A stretch of DNA of 32,000 nt, taken from Moraxella nasicaprae. Lineage in GTDB: Bacteria > Pseudomonadota > Gammaproteobacteria > Pseudomonadales > Moraxellaceae. Under the pieces are notes generated by a model. The model had not been told where the DNA came from and did not search any database. It worked only from the letters and a program-made list of their open reading frames with translations. Positions 2,693 through 16,346 of this stretch are shown one piece after another. The stretch covers positions 870,001-902,000 of the forward strand of contig NZ_CP089977.1 of assembly GCF_025643275.1 (NCBI RefSeq), read 5' to 3'. Each line of letters starts with the position of its first letter. Within the stretch, counting starts at the first letter, position 1. A program made the translations under genes and the position numbers.

Positions 2693-5296
2693 ATGAAAAC
2701 ACTCAAAAAAAGTGCTTTGGCAATCGCAGTCATGTCCTGCCTAAGTCTGAGCAGTCATGCTGCTGATGACACCAGCACCAACAAAGCAAGTAAATTTGCC
2801 TACCCAGAAACTCGGGTTCATCAAGATGACCTAGACCCATTTTTGTTTGGCGAATTTGGTATGTCTGCCAATACCGCAGCCAGTAGCAATGGTATGCATG
2901 ACCCATCAGTACACCAACCTGATGATGGTGTTGATAGCTACATTGGCGGTGTTGATGTGGATAAATATCGCTGGTTGGAGAATTATGACCCAATCAACCC
3001 AGCCCAAGCCAAAGAGTACACCGAAGACCGTCAAAGAAACTTCATCGGCACACACGCTGAGGACGATCGTGGTTTGGCAGCAGAGGCGATTAGCTCTTTG
3101 CAAATCGTACCACCAAAATCATCAAGTGAAGTTAATGACTGGGTCAATGCCCAAAATGCTCTGACCGAAAACTACATTAAAAACTTGCCTGTCTATGAGT
3201 CGTTCAAAAAGAACGCCAAGAGTTTGCAAGACCGTGAGCACACTTACAGCACCATCACTCGTGAGGGCGTGGGAGAATTTCGCTACTACCGCCACGAAGA
3301 TGGCTTTAAGCGTGTTTCGCTGACTCGTGAAGATGGTTCTGTGATTGAGCTGGTGAATGAAAAAAATCTATCTATTCCAGAACGCAATGTCAATGCTGTG
3401 ATGAGCAGCTTTAAAGTCAGTAAAGGCGGTTCGTACATCTCATTTGTGGTGCGACACGGTCGTTCAGACGCTGACCCTTACTTTATTCATGTGCTTGACA
3501 GCAAAACAGGCGAGCTTGCCACACCAATCATTGGACGCATCAACCGCTCCAATCCAGCTCACACTTGGATTGATGACACCAGTCTGATGTATGCCGCCAT
3601 TGAACAATATCGCTCTTTGGTATTTAGACGAGATATTGGCAAAAAACGCTTCAATGACCCCATTGAAGTACCACTCAACCACATTGATGGTGCCAGCGTC
3701 AATAAAATCTCATTGTATGGCGATGATAAACGCTACATCGTGATGGATGTCTATGACAGTGGCGATACGGTTTATATCAAAGACCGTAAAACAGGCAATG
3801 CCTATCGCCTACATAACCAAGATTTTTATAACAAAGTCGTCAGATATAATTCAAGCTTTAACAATAATATCTTGGCAAAATTTGTCCATTTTGAGCCAAA
3901 AACTGGCGATGTATGGTTCATCAGTGGTGAAAATAACCGCAAAGGCGAAATCATCAAAAGCAACATCAAAAACCTAAAACACCGTGAGGTGGTCGTTCCT
4001 GCCATCGATGGCTATGACATCATGCGTGAGGCGTATTATCATGAAGAAGGCGATGGCTATTTCCTCATCAGCCTACTCAAAGATGGTGTCAGTCGTCTGT
4101 TGTTGGTTGATGCCAAGACCGCCAACATCGTCAAAGACCTAACCCCTGCTGAGGGTGCTGGTATCATCAACAATCTATCAGGCAATGTCGTTGGTGAAGA
4201 AAAAAACCCTGACGACGAGATTGACTATGATGATGCTGAAAGTGGCGAAAACTATGTCAAATTCAGTTTCTCAAACCCAACTTTCCCAGAGACGGACTAC
4301 AAATATAGCATCGCCAAAGACCAATTCTTGGACATTCGCCGTCATGATTTAACACCATTTGACCATACCAAATATGAGACCAAAACCGTGTTCTATCATT
4401 CAACTGATGGCACCAAAGTTCCAATGAACATCAGTTACAAAAAAGGCATCAAACTTGATGGCAACAACCCAACCATGCTGTACGGCTACGGTGGCTATGG
4501 GGTCATCTACGACCAACAATTTGGCTTCCCTGCCAATACCGAATGGCTTGAAAATGGTGGCGTATGGGCTCACGCATTCATTCGTGGTGGTGGCGAGTAT
4601 GGCGATGATTGGCAAAATGCTGCCAAACACACCAATCGCTTGATTGGCTATGATGATTTTGCAGCAGCGGCAGACTATCTCAACGAAAAAGGCTATGCCA
4701 ACCCAAATCATCTTGCCATCATTGGTGGCTCTAATGGTGGTCTATTGGTTGGTGCTGCGATGGTTCGTCACCCTGACAAATACCGTGTGGCTATCCCAGA
4801 GGTGGGCGTATTTGACCAGTTCCGCCACGAAAAAGCAGGGGTAACGCAATACTGGATGGAAGAGTATGGCACACCAGAAGAAGGTCGCTATACCTATAAT
4901 ATCCTAAAAAGCTACTCGCCTTATCACAACTTGCACAAAGGCACTTGCTATCCATCAACATTGATTGCCACTTCTAAGCGTGACGACCGTGTTGTGCCAT
5001 CGCATTCTTATCGCTTTGCTGCTGCCTTGCAAGAGGCTCAAAGTTGTGACCGTCCAGCATTCCTACACGCTGCCGAGGACGCAGGACATAGTCCAAATAC
5101 CTATGCAGAACGCAATGAGCGAGACCTACAGGTAATGGCGTTTGCACTGGGCGAAATGGGCGTAACCAGCGTTCCTGTTATCGAATATCGTCCATCGCTT
5201 GATGAGATGAAAACTGAAAAATGGCGTGCCGAAGATGCCAAAAAGCGTGAACGGCTGACCAAAAAACAAGCGGAAAAATCAACCAACACTCAATGA
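2693..5296 (+). CDS. Secreted prolyl oligopeptidase (S9A family serine peptidase)
   Basis: This is an 867-aa ORF. The signal peptide ends ...SLSSHA. It has the N-terminal YRWLEN motif typical of prolyl endopeptidases and the catalytic GGSNGGLL (GxSxGG) serine motif, followed by D and H regions (RDDRV, AGHS). The tail is lysine-rich. Confidence 0.9.
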   Translation: MKTLKKSALAIAVMSCLSLSSHAADDTSTNKASKFAYPETRVHQDDLDPFLFGEFGMSANTAASSNGMHDPSVHQPDDGVDSYIGGVDVDKYRWLENYDPINPAQAKEYTEDRQRNFIGTHAEDDRGLAAEAISSLQIVPPKSSSEVNDWVNAQNALTENYIKNLPVYESFKKNAKSLQDREHTYSTITREGVGEFRYYRHEDGFKRVSLTREDGSVIELVNEKNLSIPERNVNAVMSSFKVSKGGSYISFVVRHGRSDADPYFIHVLDSKTGELATPIIGRINRSNPAHTWIDDTSLMYAAIEQYRSLVFRRDIGKKRFNDPIEVPLNHIDGASVNKISLYGDDKRYIVMDVYDSGDTVYIKDRKTGNAYRLHNQDFYNKVVRYNSSFNNNILAKFVHFEPKTGDVWFISGENNRKGEIIKSNIKNLKHREVVVPAIDGYDIMREAYYHEEGDGYFLISLLKDGVSRLLLVDAKTANIVKDLTPAEGAGIINNLSGNVVGEEKNPDDEIDYDDAESGENYVKFSFSNPTFPETDYKYSIAKDQFLDIRRHDLTPFDHTKYETKTVFYHSTDGTKVPMNISYKKGIKLDGNNPTMLYGYGGYGVIYDQQFGFPANTEWLENGGVWAHAFIRGGGEYGDDWQNAAKHTNRLIGYDDFAAAADYLNEKGYANPNHLAIIGGSNGGLLVGAAMVRHPDKYRVAIPEVGVFDQFRHEKAGVTQYWMEEYGTPEEGRYTYNILKSYSPYHNLHKGTCYPSTLIATSKRDDRVVPSHSYRFAAALQEAQSCDRPAFLHAAEDAGHSPNTYAERNERDLQVMAFALGEMGVTSVPVIEYRPSLDEMKTEKWRAEDAKKRERLTKKQAEKSTNTQ

Positions 5297-11747: not shown

Positions 11748-13847
11748 TTAAGACTGCAACAACCCAATGTCCGCCACGCTCAAAAATAACGCTCGCACTT
11801 GTTGTAATAGAGCAAGGCGGTTATTTTTTAGATTCTCGTCATCAGCATTCACCATCACGCCATCAAAAAACTGCGTCAAAGGCTCATCTAGTTGTACCAA
11901 CTCCTGCAACACACCCTGATAGTCTGACATGGCTTGGCGTGGAGCAACCGCTTGTTTGGCGGTGCTGACGGCAGAGAACAAGGCTTGTTCAGCAGCCTCC
12001 ACCAAAAGCGACCGCTCAATCTCATCAGCGATGTCGCCTTGTGCTTTGGCAAGAATATTGCCCACTCGCTTGTTATTTTGGGCAAGTGTCTTGGCTTGTG
12101 GCAAAGCACGGAACGCCTCAACCGCACGAATACGCTCATCAAAATCAAACGGCGTATCAGGATTGATTTCTTGCACCGCCAAGATGGTATCAACATTCAC
12201 GCCCTGCTCGGTGTACATCGCACGATAGCGAGAATTGATGAAAGTCATCACTTCTTCAAAAATCTTTTGATGATTGTCAAGCACTTCGCCATAAGCTGAT
12301 AATGACGCTTGCACCAAAGATGATAAGCCAATCGGCAATTTTTTCTCAATCAAAATACGCAAAATACCAATGCTGGCTCGTCTTAGGCTAAATGGGTCTT
12401 TTGAGCCTGTTGGCACTTGACCGATGCCAAAAATCCCCACCAAAGTATCAATGCGGTCAGCCAACGCCAACGCCGTACCAATGGCGGTTTGGGGCAAGTT
12501 ATCGCCACTAAATTTGGGCAGATACTGCTCTTCGATGGCTTGGGCAACGGCTGGATTTTCGCTATTTTTGGCATAATAAGTACCAGCTACCCCTTGCAGC
12601 TCTGGGAACTCACCCACCAAAGTTGTCGCCAAATCCGCCTTGCACAACATCGCTGCACGCACCACATCCTCGTCATTGATGTTCTGCCAGCCATCTTGAT
12701 TTGCCAAAGATTGGTTGATGGCGGTGGCAATCTTGGCAATGCGTTCGCTCTTTTGCCAAATCGTACCAAGTTTATCTTGGAATACTCGATTTTTAAGCAG
12801 CTGAGCAAAATAAGACAGCGGTTGTTTTTGGTCTTGCAAAAAGAAAAATTCAGCGTCTGCTAGGCGTGGACGCACCACTTTTTCATTACCCAAGATGACG
12901 GCGGATTTATCAAGGCTGTCAATATTGCTGACAAAAACAAAGTACGGTAATAATTTGCCGTTTTTGTCGGTCAAGCAAAAATATTTTTGGTCAGCCTGCA
13001 TGGTGCTAATGAGTGCCTCTTGGGGAACGGCTAAGAACCGCTCTTCAAAGCTGGCTCGTAGAGCGACAGGGAAATCGACAAGGGCAGTTACCTCATCAAG
13101 CAGCTCATCAGGCACAATGGCGTCTGCCCCCACTTCGTCAGCAAGGCGAGCGACTTGCTTACTGATGCTGGCTTGGCGTTCATCAAAATCAGCGATGACA
13201 TATTGATTTTTGAGCAGCTCTTGATAATCATCAGCATGAGCAATACTCACAAAATCAGGGGCATGATAGCGATGACCTCGTGTTTGATTGCCCGTCTTAT
13301 GCCCTTGAATGGTTGCATCAATGACCGCTTCATCACGCATCAAGACCACCCACTGCACAGGACGGACAAACTCATGACGGTCAGCCCCAGAACGCATTCG
13401 CTTGGCAATCGGCAAATTGTCCAACGCCTTTTGGAAAATTGCTGGCAGCAGTACATCAACCGCCTCGCCCTTGATGGTCAAATCATAACCAATGTATTCG
13501 CCTTTTTTGTCCGATACCGTGATGAGGTCGTCTTTGCTTAGGGTTAAGCCAGTCGCATTTAAGCCTTGCAAAAAGCCCTGACCTGCTCTTGTTAATTCGC
13601 CATTGTCATCAAACGCTGCTTTTAGTGCAGGTCCACGCTTTTGCTCGACCTTATCAGGCGTGGTGGTTGCCACATTATCCATCTGCACCGCCAGACGGCG
13701 TGGAGCAGCATAAGCCCTGATATTCTCATAGACAATGCCTGAGGCATCAAGTGCCGTGCGAACATTGTCAAGCAAGGCATCACGCAAAGTTTTTAGGGAT
13801 TTTGGTGGCAACTCTTCGGTGCCAAGTTCAAATAGGATTGTGTTCAT
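11748..13847 (-). CDS. glyS: Glycine--tRNA ligase beta subunit
   Basis: The 699-aa ORF has the N-terminus MNTILFELGTEELPPKSL, matching the conserved GlyS start (E. coli ...EIGTEELPPKAL). The size is typical for the beta subunit. Confidence 0.97.
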   Translation of the reverse strand: MNTILFELGTEELPPKSLKTLRDALLDNVRTALDASGIVYENIRAYAAPRRLAVQMDNVATTTPDKVEQKRGPALKAAFDDNGELTRAGQGFLQGLNATGLTLSKDDLITVSDKKGEYIGYDLTIKGEAVDVLLPAIFQKALDNLPIAKRMRSGADRHEFVRPVQWVVLMRDEAVIDATIQGHKTGNQTRGHRYHAPDFVSIAHADDYQELLKNQYVIADFDERQASISKQVARLADEVGADAIVPDELLDEVTALVDFPVALRASFEERFLAVPQEALISTMQADQKYFCLTDKNGKLLPYFVFVSNIDSLDKSAVILGNEKVVRPRLADAEFFFLQDQKQPLSYFAQLLKNRVFQDKLGTIWQKSERIAKIATAINQSLANQDGWQNINDEDVVRAAMLCKADLATTLVGEFPELQGVAGTYYAKNSENPAVAQAIEEQYLPKFSGDNLPQTAIGTALALADRIDTLVGIFGIGQVPTGSKDPFSLRRASIGILRILIEKKLPIGLSSLVQASLSAYGEVLDNHQKIFEEVMTFINSRYRAMYTEQGVNVDTILAVQEINPDTPFDFDERIRAVEAFRALPQAKTLAQNNKRVGNILAKAQGDIADEIERSLLVEAAEQALFSAVSTAKQAVAPRQAMSDYQGVLQELVQLDEPLTQFFDGVMVNADDENLKNNRLALLQQVRALFLSVADIGLLQS

Positions 13848-13874
13848 TGTTTGACCTGTTATTTCAATTTTAAA

Positions 13875-14417
13875 TTACAACACACGGTATAAAGTTTTCA
13901 TTTCATCATCACCCACAACGGCTAATTGTTTAAAGTCGTGGCGTGCATATAAATCAAGCAGTTTGTCAATGGGCTGGCATTCTAAGATGACGGCACGACC
14001 GCCAATGATTTGACGAGCGGACAATAATATTTCAAAAACTCTATCAAAAATATCCTGCAAGATAATTGGGTTATTTTCTACATTGGCATTTTTGCCGATT
14101 TGCCCAATTAAAAAAGTTCGTATGGTTTTGGCATTTTTATTAAAGCCATCTAATTTTTTCACAACGCTTTTGCTTAATTTTTCATTATCAATATTAACAT
14201 CTTTAAAAGACAATGAAAAATATGTCAACAGTTCTCCATTGTTAGAAACAATCAAATAAGTTCTGGCATTGTGCGTGCGTTCAAAGTCAATGGCTTTATT
14301 TTTCAAAAATCGCTCAACATCTGGATTTTTTGGACAAGAAAACTCATTTATCAATCGTTTGATTGATTGTTCTTTTTTATCGTTATCCAAAAAATCCAAT
14401 AATGGATAAATTCTCAT
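13875..14417 (-). CDS. GNAT-fold protein resembling TacT/AtaT/KacT-type acetyltransferase toxins, with a divergent cofactor loop
   Basis: This is a 180-aa ORF. From memory of TacT/KacT, the segment order matches: FSCPKNPDVERFLKNKAIDFERTHNARTYLIV (compare F-D/S-C-G..L..FLK......aRTyvl), LLTYFSLS, IRTFLIGQIGKN (beta4), GGRAVILEC, and LDLYARHDFKQL (compare FYahhGF, with the catalytic Tyr). The expected R/Q-x-x-G-x-G/A loop is replaced by VENNPII. The start codon overlaps the upstream small ORF in an ATGA. Confidence 0.6.
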   Translation of the reverse strand: MRIYPLLDFLDNDKKEQSIKRLINEFSCPKNPDVERFLKNKAIDFERTHNARTYLIVSNNGELLTYFSLSFKDVNIDNEKLSKSVVKKLDGFNKNAKTIRTFLIGQIGKNANVENNPIILQDIFDRVFEILLSARQIIGGRAVILECQPIDKLLDLYARHDFKQLAVVGDDEMKTLYRVL

Positions 14418-14587
14418 TTTTTATCCCAGCGTTTTTGTAAAATTTCCAAAAATTCATCAACGCTTGGCTGTTCTTTTTTGGGTGATTTAATTTGCACAGG
14501 CTTGGCATTTTCCAAATCATATAAAAACTCTTCAATCGCCTTTTCATCACGCACGATAAATTGTTTATCAAACGATGCAGTACTCAT
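14414..14587 (-). CDS. 57-aa putative antitoxin (DUF1778-like C-terminal neutralisation segment only, no RHH head)
   Basis: This ORF is below the 60-aa cut-off of the supplied track and was translated by hand: MSTASFDKQFIVRDEKAIEEFLYDLENAKPVQIKSPKKEQPSVDEFLEILQKRWDKK. AAGGA lies 6 nt upstream of the ATG (14587). Its TGA overlaps the ATG of the 180-aa ORF (ATGA at 14417-14414). The pattern F.v.DE...EF...L...P.....L..LL.+..W resembles the C-terminal half of TacA/KacA as I recall them. Confidence 0.5.
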   Translation of the reverse strand: MSTASFDKQFIVRDEKAIEEFLYDLENAKPVQIKSPKKEQPSVDEFLEILQKRWDKK

Positions 14588-14603
14588 TTTTAATCCTTAT
14601 TGA

Positions 14604-14825
14604 TTAATCATCATCTTTGTCATTATCACGCTCGCCACGCTCATTTTGGTCATCATCTTCATCACGACCATTGTCATTACGATTGTCATCACGGTCATCA
14701 TCACGATTGCTACGGTCGGACTGCTCGGTGCGGTCGTTTTCACGCTCGTTATTGTCGTTATTGCCAACCATACCACAGGCGGTTAAAAAAGTGGCTAAAA
14801 CAGCGATTAAAATAAGGTTTTTCAT
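14604..14825 (-). CDS. Small hyper-acidic low-complexity lipoprotein
   Basis: The 73-aa ORF has a canonical lipoprotein signal, MKNLILIAVLATFLTAC (lipobox LTAC). The mature part is almost entirely D/N/R/E (…NRDDDRDDNRNDNGRDEDDDQNERGERDNDKDDD). The SD is weak (AAGAG). Confidence 0.55.
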   Translation of the reverse strand: MKNLILIAVLATFLTACGMVGNNDNNERENDRTEQSDRSNRDDDRDDNRNDNGRDEDDDQNERGERDNDKDDD

Positions 14826-14875
14826 AAATATACTCTTGAAAATTTAATGGATTAAAATGAGATTGATATTTTTAT

Positions 14876-14950
14876 ATCATATCAAAATTGCTCAATCGCC
14901 TTTTCATCACGTACAATAAATTATTTATCAAAAGATATGGTGATTACTAT
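14876..14950 (-). pseudogene. Decayed duplicate of the first ~24 codons of the 57-aa antitoxin-like gene
   Basis: By hand alignment, 14876-14950 matches 14516-14587 at about 85% over roughly 60 nt, including a 20-nt identical core (TCAATCGCCTTTTCATCACG). In the copy, ATG has become ATA and the frame reads IVITISFDK*FIVRDEKAIEQF*YD, with two stops. Confidence 0.55.
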
Positions 14951-14968
14951 TTCCCTGCTAAATATCAT

Positions 14969-15403
14969 CTATTTTCTACACTCATCCTTAATATGCGAAA
15001 TTTCCGTTTTAACAGTATGAGGCAATGGCGTAAATACAGCAACTTCTTGGTTGTTGCGAAAAACTTGTATTTTTTTAGCTTTTGAGATGGCTTCATTAAA
15101 TTTTACCCACTCATTATCGCTTTCTTTGGTGGTTGTGATTGTTACTGGAATAGTATTATCAAACAAAAAGCTAAATTGATTTTTCTCAGTAACATCTATT
15201 GGCTCATCATCAATATTATAGCTAAAATAAATGGAGCGACCATATTCTTCTCCACAAGATATTTCTAGCGATTGACTTTTTTTATTCTCAATATAAAATT
15301 GAGCTTGACCAAAATTATGTCCATAACTCCAACTATTTGGAGTTGCATTAGCCACAACACAAGACAAACCAATAGTTAAAACCAATAATTTTTTCTTAAA
15401 CAT
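14969..15403 (-). CDS. Secreted/periplasmic hypothetical protein (144 aa), translationally coupled to glyQ
   Basis: The internal ATG at 15403 gives MFKKKLLVLTIGLSCVVANA, a good Sec signal. It lies 1 nt after the glyQ stop codon. A GAGGAGGAG SD sits inside the last glyQ codons. I recognise no family. The longer tracked ORF (to 15583) overlaps glyQ out of frame and is rejected. Confidence 0.6.
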   Translation of the reverse strand: MFKKKLLVLTIGLSCVVANATPNSWSYGHNFGQAQFYIENKKSQSLEISCGEEYGRSIYFSYNIDDEPIDVTEKNQFSFLFDNTIPVTITTTKESDNEWVKFNEAISKAKKIQVFRNNQEVAVFTPLPHTVKTEISHIKDECRK

Positions 15404-15404
15404 C

Positions 15405-16346
15405 TCACTCCTCCTCTTTCGGCAACCACTTCTCCAACGCTTCTTTTTTATGTGCTTCATCAGCCAAAGGAAAACCAAGTTTGGCACGAGCGATGGTATA
15501 GCTTTCTGCCACTTTACGAGCCAGCGTACGCACTCGCAAAATAAAGCGTTGGCGTTCGGTAACGCTAATCGCTCCACGAGCATCTAGCAGGTTAAAGCTA
15601 TGAGATGCCTTTAATACCATTTCATAAGCAGGCAACGGCAAGTTTACACCCACAAGGCGGTCAGCCTCTTTTTCATAAAAATCAAACAAATCAAAGAGTT
15701 TGTCCACATCGGCATATTCAAAGTTATAGGTGGACTGCTCCACTTCGTTTTGGTGGAACACATCACCATAGGTGACACGCCCAAACTCTCCGTCCGTCCA
15801 TACAAGGTCATAGACGCTATCCACGCCCTGAATGTACATCGCAAGGCGTTCAAGCCCATAAGTAATCTCTCCTGTCACAGGAAAACACTCAATGCCCCCG
15901 ACCTGCTGAAAATAGGTAAACTGCGTAACTTCCATACCATTTAGCCACACTTCCCAGCCAAGCCCCCACGCCCCAAGCGTTGGCGACTCCCAGTTATCCT
16001 CGACAAATCGCACATCGTGGGTAAGCGTGTCAATGCCAAGTGCCTTTAATGAGCCAAGATATAGCTCTTGGATATTGGCAGGGTTTGGTTTTAGGACGAC
16101 TTGAAACTGGTAATAATGTTGCAGACGGTTGGGGTTGTCGCCATATCGTCCATCAGTGGGGCGGCGAGAGGGCTGAACATAGGCGGCGTTCCATTTTTCA
16201 GGAGTTAAGGCTCTAAGGAAAGTGGCGGTGTGAAAAGTGCCTGCCCCCATTTCCATGTCATAAGGCTGTAAAATTACACAGCCTTGCTGAGCCCAGTAGT
16301 TTTGGAGAGTGAGGATAATTTGTTGAAAAGTCATGGTCATAAACAC
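15405..16346 (-). CDS. glyQ: Glycine--tRNA ligase alpha subunit
   Basis: It is near-collinear with E. coli GlyQ as I recall it ([96 protein letters not shown]). The true start may be the ATG at 16340 or 16334 rather than the GTG at 16346. Confidence 0.97.

Follow-up and report, generated by a model that had tools for sequence, protein, structure and literature searches.

A pair of overlapping genes, located between the glycyl-tRNA synthetase genes glyQ and glyS of Moraxella nasicaprae, is fairly likely to constitute a toxin-antitoxin-type module, in which a free GNAT-fold enzyme would acylate aminoacyl-tRNA and a translationally coupled partner protein would fold onto the enzyme and block it, without DNA-binding autoregulation. 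The pair lies on the minus strand of a 32,000 nucleotide (nt) stretch of contig NZ_CP089977.1 (RefSeq assembly GCF_025643275.1; positions 870,001 to 902,000), the whole of which is referred to as the window and to which all positions given here refer. Adjacent, co-oriented and overlapping genes with a patchy, mobile distribution are features of type II toxin-antitoxin systems, and these features are present in the pair. Its components in the window are as follows:

14414 to 14587, minus strand: open reading frame (ORF) of the 57 amino acid partner, a putative antitoxin, of which the first codons (14587-14570) encode MSTASF, the family-invariant N-terminal motif
14594 to 14598, minus strand: AAGGA Shine-Dalgarno sequence of the partner gene, 6 nt 5′ of its ATG
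13875 to 14417, minus strand: gene for the 180 amino acid GNAT-fold protein, a putative toxin, on the basis of profile, fold and PHROG matches
14414 to 14417, minus strand: ATGA overlap, in which the TGA stop of the partner gene runs into the ATG of the GNAT gene
14061 to 14081, minus strand: codons for V113-E-N-N-P-I-I119, the β4-α3 loop in place of the Q/R-x-x-G-x-G/A acetyl-CoA pyrophosphate motif
13947 to 13949, minus strand: codon for Y157, the counterpart in the alignments of the GNAT toxin catalytic tyrosine

In a first-pass annotation of this DNA the 57 amino acid frame, which was missing from the ORF track, had been translated by hand and described as ATGA-coupled to the 180 amino acid frame, and both frames were confirmed at these coordinates. 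The NCBI annotation of M. nasicaprae includes both products (100% identical), the larger as an 'acetyltransferase' and the smaller as a 'hypothetical protein'. The partner gene begins 16 nt past the stop codon of an upstream lipoprotein ORF, and a motif resembling AAGGA or AAGGT precedes the partner ATG in other Moraxella copies as well.

A search of 5.8 billion proteins identified 164 relatives of the 180 amino acid protein, among Moraxella, Vibrio, Shewanella, Proteus and many Lachnospiraceae. A family profile was built from 36 relatives and, when compared against the PDB, matched only GNAT toxins of toxin-antitoxin systems, namely the GmvT, TacT3, AtaT2, TacT and TacT1 chains (e-values: 2.6e-5 for GmvT to 1.1e-3). 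Similarly, hhalign comparison against a reference set of nine GNAT toxins adjoining annotated DUF1778 genes on plasmids aligned the family over 138 columns (Probability: 98.6%; e-value: 6.4e-16), while the Pfam model Acetyltransf_1 was touched by only 4/36 family members (best e-value: 0.008). The AlphaFold2 model of the protein has high scores (predicted local distance difference test, pLDDT: 95.8; predicted TM-score, pTM: 0.89) and its top 38 Foldseek matches in the PDB are all titled AtaT, AtaT2, TacT1-3, KacT or GmvT, or belong to an unnamed 'bacterial toxin' (7byy), with e-values of about 4e-9 to 1e-6 and query TM-scores of 0.62-0.72. Generic GNAT proteins, including the N-terminal acetyltransferases Naa60 and Ard1, rank after these toxins with TM-scores of about 0.5. 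The PHROGs collection covers both genes of the pair, with the 180 amino acid protein matching phrog_1758, annotated as 'acetyltransferase' (e-value: 2.6e-33), and the partner belonging to phrog_3291, for which no function is assigned there. As judged by profile and predicted fold, the 180 amino acid protein is a relative of the TacT/AtaT-type toxins, as the first-pass annotation had proposed, and the GNAT fold has now been obtained by prediction; the pair gave no direct match to Pfam GNAT or DUF1778 models, and the kinship emerged from the family profile. Furthermore, the ratio of non-synonymous to synonymous substitution rates (dN/dS) of the GNAT gene in Moraxella is 0.09-0.34, indicating purifying selection.

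Y157 is nearly invariant across the GNAT family; its counterpart in the reference toxins is an invariant tyrosine, and in GmvT and TacT it is aligned with the FY/FF dipeptides, so that the tyrosine region which had been noted by eye is retained. By their PDB titles, the AtaT Y144F and KacT Y145F entries are structures of tyrosine mutants. The loop which binds the acetyl-CoA pyrophosphate in GNAT proteins is altered in the family. In the hhalign alignment the invariant G103 and G105 of the Q-G-x-G-x-G loop of the reference toxins fall on N115 and P117, which bears out the earlier reading of VENNPII as a loop devoid of glycines, and the β4 motif G-R-L-A-V-D is replaced by G-Q-I-G-K-N. The gammaproteobacterial members share an x-x-N-P-[IV]-x-L loop, while those of Firmicutes and phages have at most one glycine ([IL]-[ST]-G). 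The window protein retains all family-invariant residues. Since the glycine-poor loop is common to plasmid, phage and other family members, it is a trait of the whole family rather than a lesion of the window copy.

The partner belongs to a still larger family. Its profile retrieved 1,782 relatives at 90% clustering and, in a set of 1.84 billion representatives, 708 clusters at the 50% identity level; no Pfam domain is recorded for any of these relatives, and those with a name are all 'hypothetical'. Most are about 55-66 amino acids in length, with the listed relatives mostly spanning 37-118 amino acids, and in the longer relatives that were examined an upstream start had been mis-called, such that the Shine-Dalgarno sequence was often translated as 'KGGV' ahead of the true methionine. 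Comparison with the M. oblonga and M. lacunata copies gives a dN of 0.007, a dS of 0.28-0.38 and a dN/dS of 0.02-0.03. Because its relatives are numerous, its dN/dS is low and it is annotated by NCBI, the 57 amino acid ORF is a real gene.

The strongest conservation in the partner family is found at the N-terminus (M-[A/S/P]-T-x-[S/T]-[F/I]-x-K-x-F), and this motif is the sole part that survives in very divergent phage copies. Residue 2 (n = 132) is alanine in 117, proline in nine, serine in four, and threonine and asparagine in one partner each, almost all of which permit methionine excision. A constraint on the RNA at the conserved start was considered and rejected: Thr3 is encoded by all four of its codons and Ser5 by both AGY and TCN codons, and the constraint therefore acts on the protein. 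The AlphaFold2 model of the partner (pLDDT: 74.5; pTM: 0.31) contains a loose strand-like N-terminal segment, a helix at residues 15-26, a 16-residue linker and a second helix at residues 43-56. No ribbon-helix-helix was detected in this model or by hhalign comparison with the corresponding half of DUF1778, where the score of 9.0 is at background level, and no DNA-binding domain of any kind was detected by profile, Pfam or AlphaFold2 model.

The first-pass annotation had interpreted the partner as the C-terminal, toxin-wrapping half of a DUF1778 antitoxin that had lost its DNA-binding head. What remains of this interpretation is a local resemblance. None of 38 partners match the Pfam DUF1778 model (PF08681), even at e-values up to 1, while the control antitoxin GmvA matches it at 2.7e-19. 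The hhalign probability of the partner family rises from 0.4% against a single DUF1778 protein to 22% against a nine-member DUF1778 profile, with residues 9-31 (QFIVRDEKAIEEFLYDLENAKPV) placed on DUF1778 positions 64-85 in a borderline alignment of 22 columns (p-value: 9.5e-4). The first-pass annotation had singled out this same stretch of the partner. The score of this comparison is 22.1, of which the C-terminal half of DUF1778 alone gives 21.7, while reversed profiles give 6.9 and 8.6. Shuffled columns score 9.2 ± 1.9 (0/120 reach 22.1), and shuffling in blocks of seven gives 10.4 ± 2.3 with a maximum of 20.8 (0/400 reach 22.1). These values are suggestive of a toxin-binding segment, shared or convergent, at residues 9-31, and are no proof of membership in DUF1778. 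The description as headless likewise stands only as far as the ribbon-helix-helix is concerned, as the partners are natively about 55-65 amino acids long with a conserved MAT-x-S start and are not truncated. Matches of the partner to LOV/phototropin PDB chains (e-values: 0.006-0.05) were dismissed as chance, arising from a KNFVISD-like word and a helix-strand pattern.

The two genes occur together almost without exception. A scan of one genome per species returned at least 541 loci with a GNAT relative, and in 78 of the best 80 of these, which were analysed and come from Gammaproteobacteria, Firmicutes, Synergistetes and other groups, the partner gene is located directly 5′ of the GNAT gene. 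The two exceptions are a locus for which there is no upstream sequence and a contig of a metagenome-assembled genome (MAG) with a rearranged partner start. Of the 53 loci that allowed the GNAT start codon to be placed, 47 show an overlap of 1 to 23 nt with the partner stop codon. Clustering of the neighbouring genes at the 80 loci revealed no conserved third gene. The co-occurrence of homologues as pairs, the absence of which would have counted against the first-pass annotation, is thus established.

Where the pair has decayed, it is generally the GNAT gene that is affected. A broken GNAT gene is accompanied by an intact partner in M. bovis (L029), in L023 and L055, and in the second copy of L066, and an orphan partner is found in L015. 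The reverse, a broken partner with an intact GNAT gene, was observed only once, on a MAG contig (L079). This asymmetry argues, at the sequence level, for a harmful role of the large protein and a protective role of the small one. In M. bovis CCUG 2133 (L029:3950-4499) a single frameshift is located just past the sequence ...ADNP in the cofactor loop of the GNAT gene, with the partner intact; the resulting 111 amino acid fragment is recorded on 13 contigs, one of them a Moraxella bovis record, and the frameshift is therefore probably real. Two loci encode two partner copies each. In an Aliikangiella MAG (L015:505-681 and 3792-3968) the first copy is the orphan and lies beside a gene for a 683 amino acid protein, and in L066 (303-512 and 3262-3456) the second copy precedes the truncated GNAT gene.

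Outside the genus Moraxella, the module is a large, mobile and uncharacterised family which forms ordinary cargo of mobile elements. The pair is found on 57 plasmids, 46 of which are Acinetobacter plasmids, many of these small, and in 32 phages or satellites. In three of the phages that were inspected it is located directly past the endolysin gene, which is the usual position for morons. In streptococcal, staphylococcal and Latilactobacillus phages (L107:1405-1898, L108:1-14, L106:1-207) the pair lies immediately 3′ of the lysin gene; in S. pyogenes it adjoins the streptodornase D gene in the lysogenic-conversion region. In Vibrio parahaemolyticus the pair is situated at the edge of an integrative conjugative element with tra genes, in Shewanella near a type I restriction hsdR gene and RadC, in Lachnospiraceae near a MobA/VirD2 relaxase, in Pseudoalteromonas near a phage-type integrase and in Acinetobacter pecorum near a phage portal gene. 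A further insertion among conserved translation-related genes is seen in an uncultured Haemophilus MAG (L027:3164-5412), where the pair is located between nusG and rplK.

In the window, as first annotated, the pair is incorporated into the glycyl-tRNA synthetase operon, with both synthetase genes on the same strand. The surrounding features are as follows:

15405 to 16346, minus strand: glyQ (glycyl-tRNA synthetase α subunit), 90-98% identical to the gene 5′ of the pair at six Moraxella loci; Pfam tRNA-synt_2e matched on the equivalent gene in L087
14969 to 15403, minus strand: 144 amino acid ORF, gap cargo, with a signal-peptide-like N-terminus and an ATG 1 nt past the glyQ stop codon
14604 to 14825, minus strand: 73 amino acid acidic lipoprotein-like ORF (MKNLILIAVLATFLTACG..., then a D/N/R/E-rich tail), with weak lipobox matches only
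13848 to 13874, minus strand: 27 nt spacer from the putative toxin stop codon to the glyS ATG, containing the glyS ribosome-binding site and identical in M. oblonga
11748 to 13847, minus strand: glyS (glycyl-tRNA synthetase β subunit), 68-73% identical to the gene 3′ of the pair at five Moraxella loci; Pfam tRNA_synt_2f and DALR_1 matched on the equivalent gene in L086
11705 to 11728, minus strand: terminator-like hairpin and T run 3′ of glyS, from a consensus scan only
13875 to 15404: AT-rich block forming the glyQ-glyS insert (GC 0.28-0.40 versus 0.42-0.53 in glyQ and glyS, from the composition profile)

The 144 amino acid ORF has no family match in the library scans and no counterpart at the other loci compared. 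The 73 amino acid ORF, which encodes an extremely acidic low-complexity tail behind a lipoprotein signal (…LTACG), is likewise absent from the other Moraxella loci compared, and is co-inserted cargo outside the pair. The pair is also present between glyQ and glyS in M. oblonga, M. lacunata NCTC10359, M. lacunata CCUG 4441, M. caviae, M. bovis and a Moraxella MAG, as well as on metagenomic contigs. In M. caviae the glyQ stop codon and the partner ATG are 2 nt apart, and in M. oblonga 25 nt. The distance from the GNAT stop codon to the glyS ATG is 27-29 nt in most copies, including those of M. lacunata, M. bovis and the Moraxella MAG, whose spacers resemble that of the window, and 36 and 79 nt in two others. 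A consensus scan of the window found no terminator-like site on the minus strand of the glyQ-glyS interval, the sole one 3′ of the pair, a strong site, following glyS. Given that these gaps are tiny or absent, and that in M. caviae and M. oblonga they leave no space outside glyQ for a promoter, the pair is likely co-transcribed with glyQS. The GNAT gene and glyQ of the window are both 98% identical to those of M. oblonga (L001) and glyS is only 73% identical, a hint that the segment containing glyQ and the pair has been recombined or exchanged between species.

The contents of the gap vary between Moraxella species, with differing secreted protein or lipoprotein ORFs, two of which are found in the window. 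On the Logan metagenome contigs L086-L089 (e.g. L087:1151-1664) a gene for a 67 amino acid protein and a ParE-family toxin gene are located between glyQ and the pair, so that two toxin-type modules stand in tandem ahead of glyS. In Moraxella sp. ZY210820 the pair is located at an unrelated locus, and none of the 74 non-Moraxella loci are near glyQ or glyS. As a ParE module and unrelated secreted and lipoprotein genes share the gap, and the pair is found elsewhere in ZY210820 and outside the genus, we conclude that the glyQ-glyS junction looks like a cargo site or insertion hotspot in which the module has been trapped. In M. lacunata CCUG 4441 (L002:4544-6374) glyS starts normally after the pair (MNTILFELGCEELPP...) and is interrupted after about 14 codons by an insertion that contains a 567 amino acid ORF with a weak match to AAA_16 ATPases; no further glyS sequence was found within the next 4 kb.

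The mechanism we propose for the pair is as follows. The 180 amino acid enzyme would share its ancestry with the tRNA-acetylating toxins TacT, AtaT, KacT and GmvT and, when free, would most likely acylate the α-amino group of one or more aminoacyl-tRNAs by means of the conserved Y157, so that translation stops. The 57 amino acid antitoxin, encoded just upstream, would be made first and be translationally coupled to the toxin. It would be a minimal antitoxin, comprising the toxin-binding strand-helix-helix segment alone, and probably folds on the toxin and blocks its cofactor or substrate site. As the partner contains no recognizable DNA-binding domain, the module would operate without classical autoregulation. 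In Moraxella it would have inserted into the glyQ-glyS gap, a landing site for foreign genes, to be transcribed and inherited with glyQS. A role in phage defence or in the maintenance of the carrying element is compatible with this mechanism; a literature search on GNAT toxins in anti-phage defence returned no study of the 180 amino acid family.

Several observations weigh against a toxin-antitoxin module. Direct Pfam, NCBIfam and PADLOC scans of the 180 amino acid protein returned nothing meaningful, while the control GNAT toxin GmvT matches three Pfam GNAT models. All three loop glycine positions are replaced, and with an acetyl-CoA loop that lacks its defining glycines the use of the cofactor becomes uncertain. 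The partner is, on the profile comparisons (hhalign probability of 22%), not demonstrably homologous to any known antitoxin, and its conservation peaks in the first six residues instead of the helices, which a model in which the partner wraps the toxin leaves unexplained. An autoregulator-free module that is expressed constitutively within an essential operon is furthermore atypical for type II systems, and the paper searches returned no experiment on any family member.

The conserved N-terminus also forms the starting point for an alternative, that the GNAT protein acts on the N-terminus of the partner itself (Ala/Ser-Thr-x-Ser-Phe after methionine removal), either as a dedicated N-terminal acetyltransferase with its substrate or regulator or as an enzyme plugged by it, in which case tRNA-directed arrest need not be its function. 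The extreme N-terminus (M-[A/S/P]-T-x-[S/T]-[F/I]) is the only universal feature of the partner, kept in the diverged phage copies; residue 2 nearly always permits methionine excision, the constraint acts at the protein level, and Naa60 and Ard1 are among the next-best structural neighbours past the toxins. A Salmonella toxin, by the title of a 2017 report by VanDrisse that is cited in PMC6698736, is also said to acetylate its own cognate antitoxin. We nevertheless consider this alternative unlikely, given that the nearest relatives in both sequence and structure are all toxins that acetylate aminoacyl-tRNA, and that mobile carriage and asymmetric decay fit an addiction or defence module. The same N-terminus could instead be accommodated within a toxin-antitoxin module, as a pseudo-substrate of which the free α-amine enters the acyl-acceptor pocket in place of the aminoacyl-tRNA end, or which becomes acetylated as a timer; the glycine-free loop may in addition point to a donor other than acetyl-CoA. 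This refinement also seems improbable at present, but, if true, would represent a new mechanism of GNAT toxin neutralisation in a family that extends across the plasmids and prophages of Firmicutes and Proteobacteria.

The location of the pair had led the first-pass annotation to propose a link to glycyl-tRNA, with Gly-tRNAGly as the target and the pair serving in Moraxella as a device, for addiction or regulation, that acts on the expression of glyQS. The pair does lie within glyQ-glyS in the window, in several Moraxella lineages and on metagenomic contigs, with short gaps on both sides and no terminator-like site between it and glyS, and 8/14 tested DUF1778-linked GNAT toxins are specific for Gly-tRNAGly (PMC9177977). 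However, the family lies outside the tested DUF1778-linked toxins, so that their glycine specificity is not transferable, the same gap accepts a ParE toxin with a small upstream partner gene as well as varied secreted and lipoprotein ORFs, and the pair is found elsewhere in ZY210820, between nusG and rplK in the Haemophilus MAG and away from glyQ and glyS at every non-Moraxella locus surveyed. M. bovis, moreover, tolerates a frameshifted toxin. A literature search combining glyQ/glyS, Moraxella and toxin-antitoxin returned nothing relevant, and the one GNAT paper that names both genes clones glycyl-tRNA synthetase just as a reagent. As such, the likely co-transcription with glyQS is the part of the proposal that is retained, a functional link to glycyl-tRNA is unsupported, and we regard a device acting on the synthetase as quite unlikely. 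It is more doubtful still that the pair is a domesticated or inactive remnant, in which loss of the loop glycines abolished cofactor binding and the genes are kept by the essential operon. The replaced glycines of the window protein and the frameshifted M. bovis copy would accord with such decay, but the glycine-poor loop extends to the plasmid and phage copies, the window protein has kept Y157 and all family-invariant residues, and the dN/dS values of the GNAT gene (0.09-0.34) and of the partner (down to 0.02) speak against it; the earlier suggestion of a remnant is not supported.

We suggest that the module is probably a toxin-antitoxin system of a new variant type, built on a TacT/AtaT relative which departs from these toxins in two of the features that define them, as it has neither the glycine loop nor a DUF1778 partner. 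To our knowledge, the known partners of GNAT toxins are almost exclusively DUF1778 and rarely DUF4065 proteins. The family would extend GNAT toxins to the Lachnospiraceae, to temperate phages and satellites of Clostridioides, Clostridium, Streptococcus and Staphylococcus, and to Acinetobacter plasmids. Pfam, NCBIfam and PADLOC have no model that covers either protein. A partner of about 60 amino acids with no DNA-binding domain would provide a small system for studying how GNAT toxins are neutralised and poses the question of control without autoregulation, and the missing glycines of the cofactor loop raise a testable question of donor use. A toxin module that is placed within an essential synthetase operon and lacks the space for its own promoter would furthermore be a natural example of an addiction module that is very hard to lose, and the glyQ-glyS junction would represent a cargo site in the genus Moraxella.

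Among known systems, TacT1-3, AtaT, AtaT2, KacT, ItaT and GmvT share the GNAT fold with the window protein and represent its nearest structures. The profile homology to these tRNA-acetylating toxins extends over about 138 residues and includes the N-terminal F-x-C-x-x-x-[DL]-x-x-[FW]-L motif, the Y-[YF]-S-L strand, β4 and the FY/LY-x-x-x-G/D-F tyrosine motif, and both groups have, 5′ of the toxin gene, a small partner gene that runs into the toxin start, and are frequently carried on plasmids. The window family differs from these toxins in the absence of the Q/R-x-x-G-x-G/A loop, and from GmvT in being missed by the Pfam GNAT models. While DUF1778-type GNAT toxins are almost absent from Firmicutes (PMC9177977), the window family is abundant in Firmicutes and their phages.

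The partner, at about 55-65 amino acids and with neither a ribbon-helix-helix nor a DUF1778 match, differs from the DUF1778/TacA partners of GNAT toxins. It comprises, in this order, a short strand, a helix that stops ahead of a proline, a linker and, at the C-terminus, a second helix, which is also the arrangement in the βB/αC/αD region of KacA, which wraps the toxin (PMC6698736), and its best local match to the DUF1778 profile, borderline at 22% over 22 columns, falls on βB/αC, at the start of the C-terminal half of DUF1778. DUF1778 proteins in turn lack the invariant N-terminal hexapeptide that the partner has in addition, while the partner never has a ribbon-helix-helix. A GNAT toxin with an antitoxin other than DUF1778 is also found in the DUF4065 (Panacea)-GNAT pairs (PMC9177977); the window partner is much shorter than DUF4065 antitoxins and has no DUF4065 match in Pfam. 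No characterisation of the window family was found in the papers searched. The closest description is that of Bikmetov et al. 2022 (PMC9177977), who reported bicistronic, toxin-antitoxin-like GNAT loci outside the 'true TA clade', with short upstream ORFs lacking a predictable DNA-binding domain, which they left uncharacterised and for which they give no family definition, motif or experiment. The pair studied here, an acetyltransferase gene related to GNAT toxins that follows a short ORF with no DNA-binding domain, can be likened to these loci by description only.

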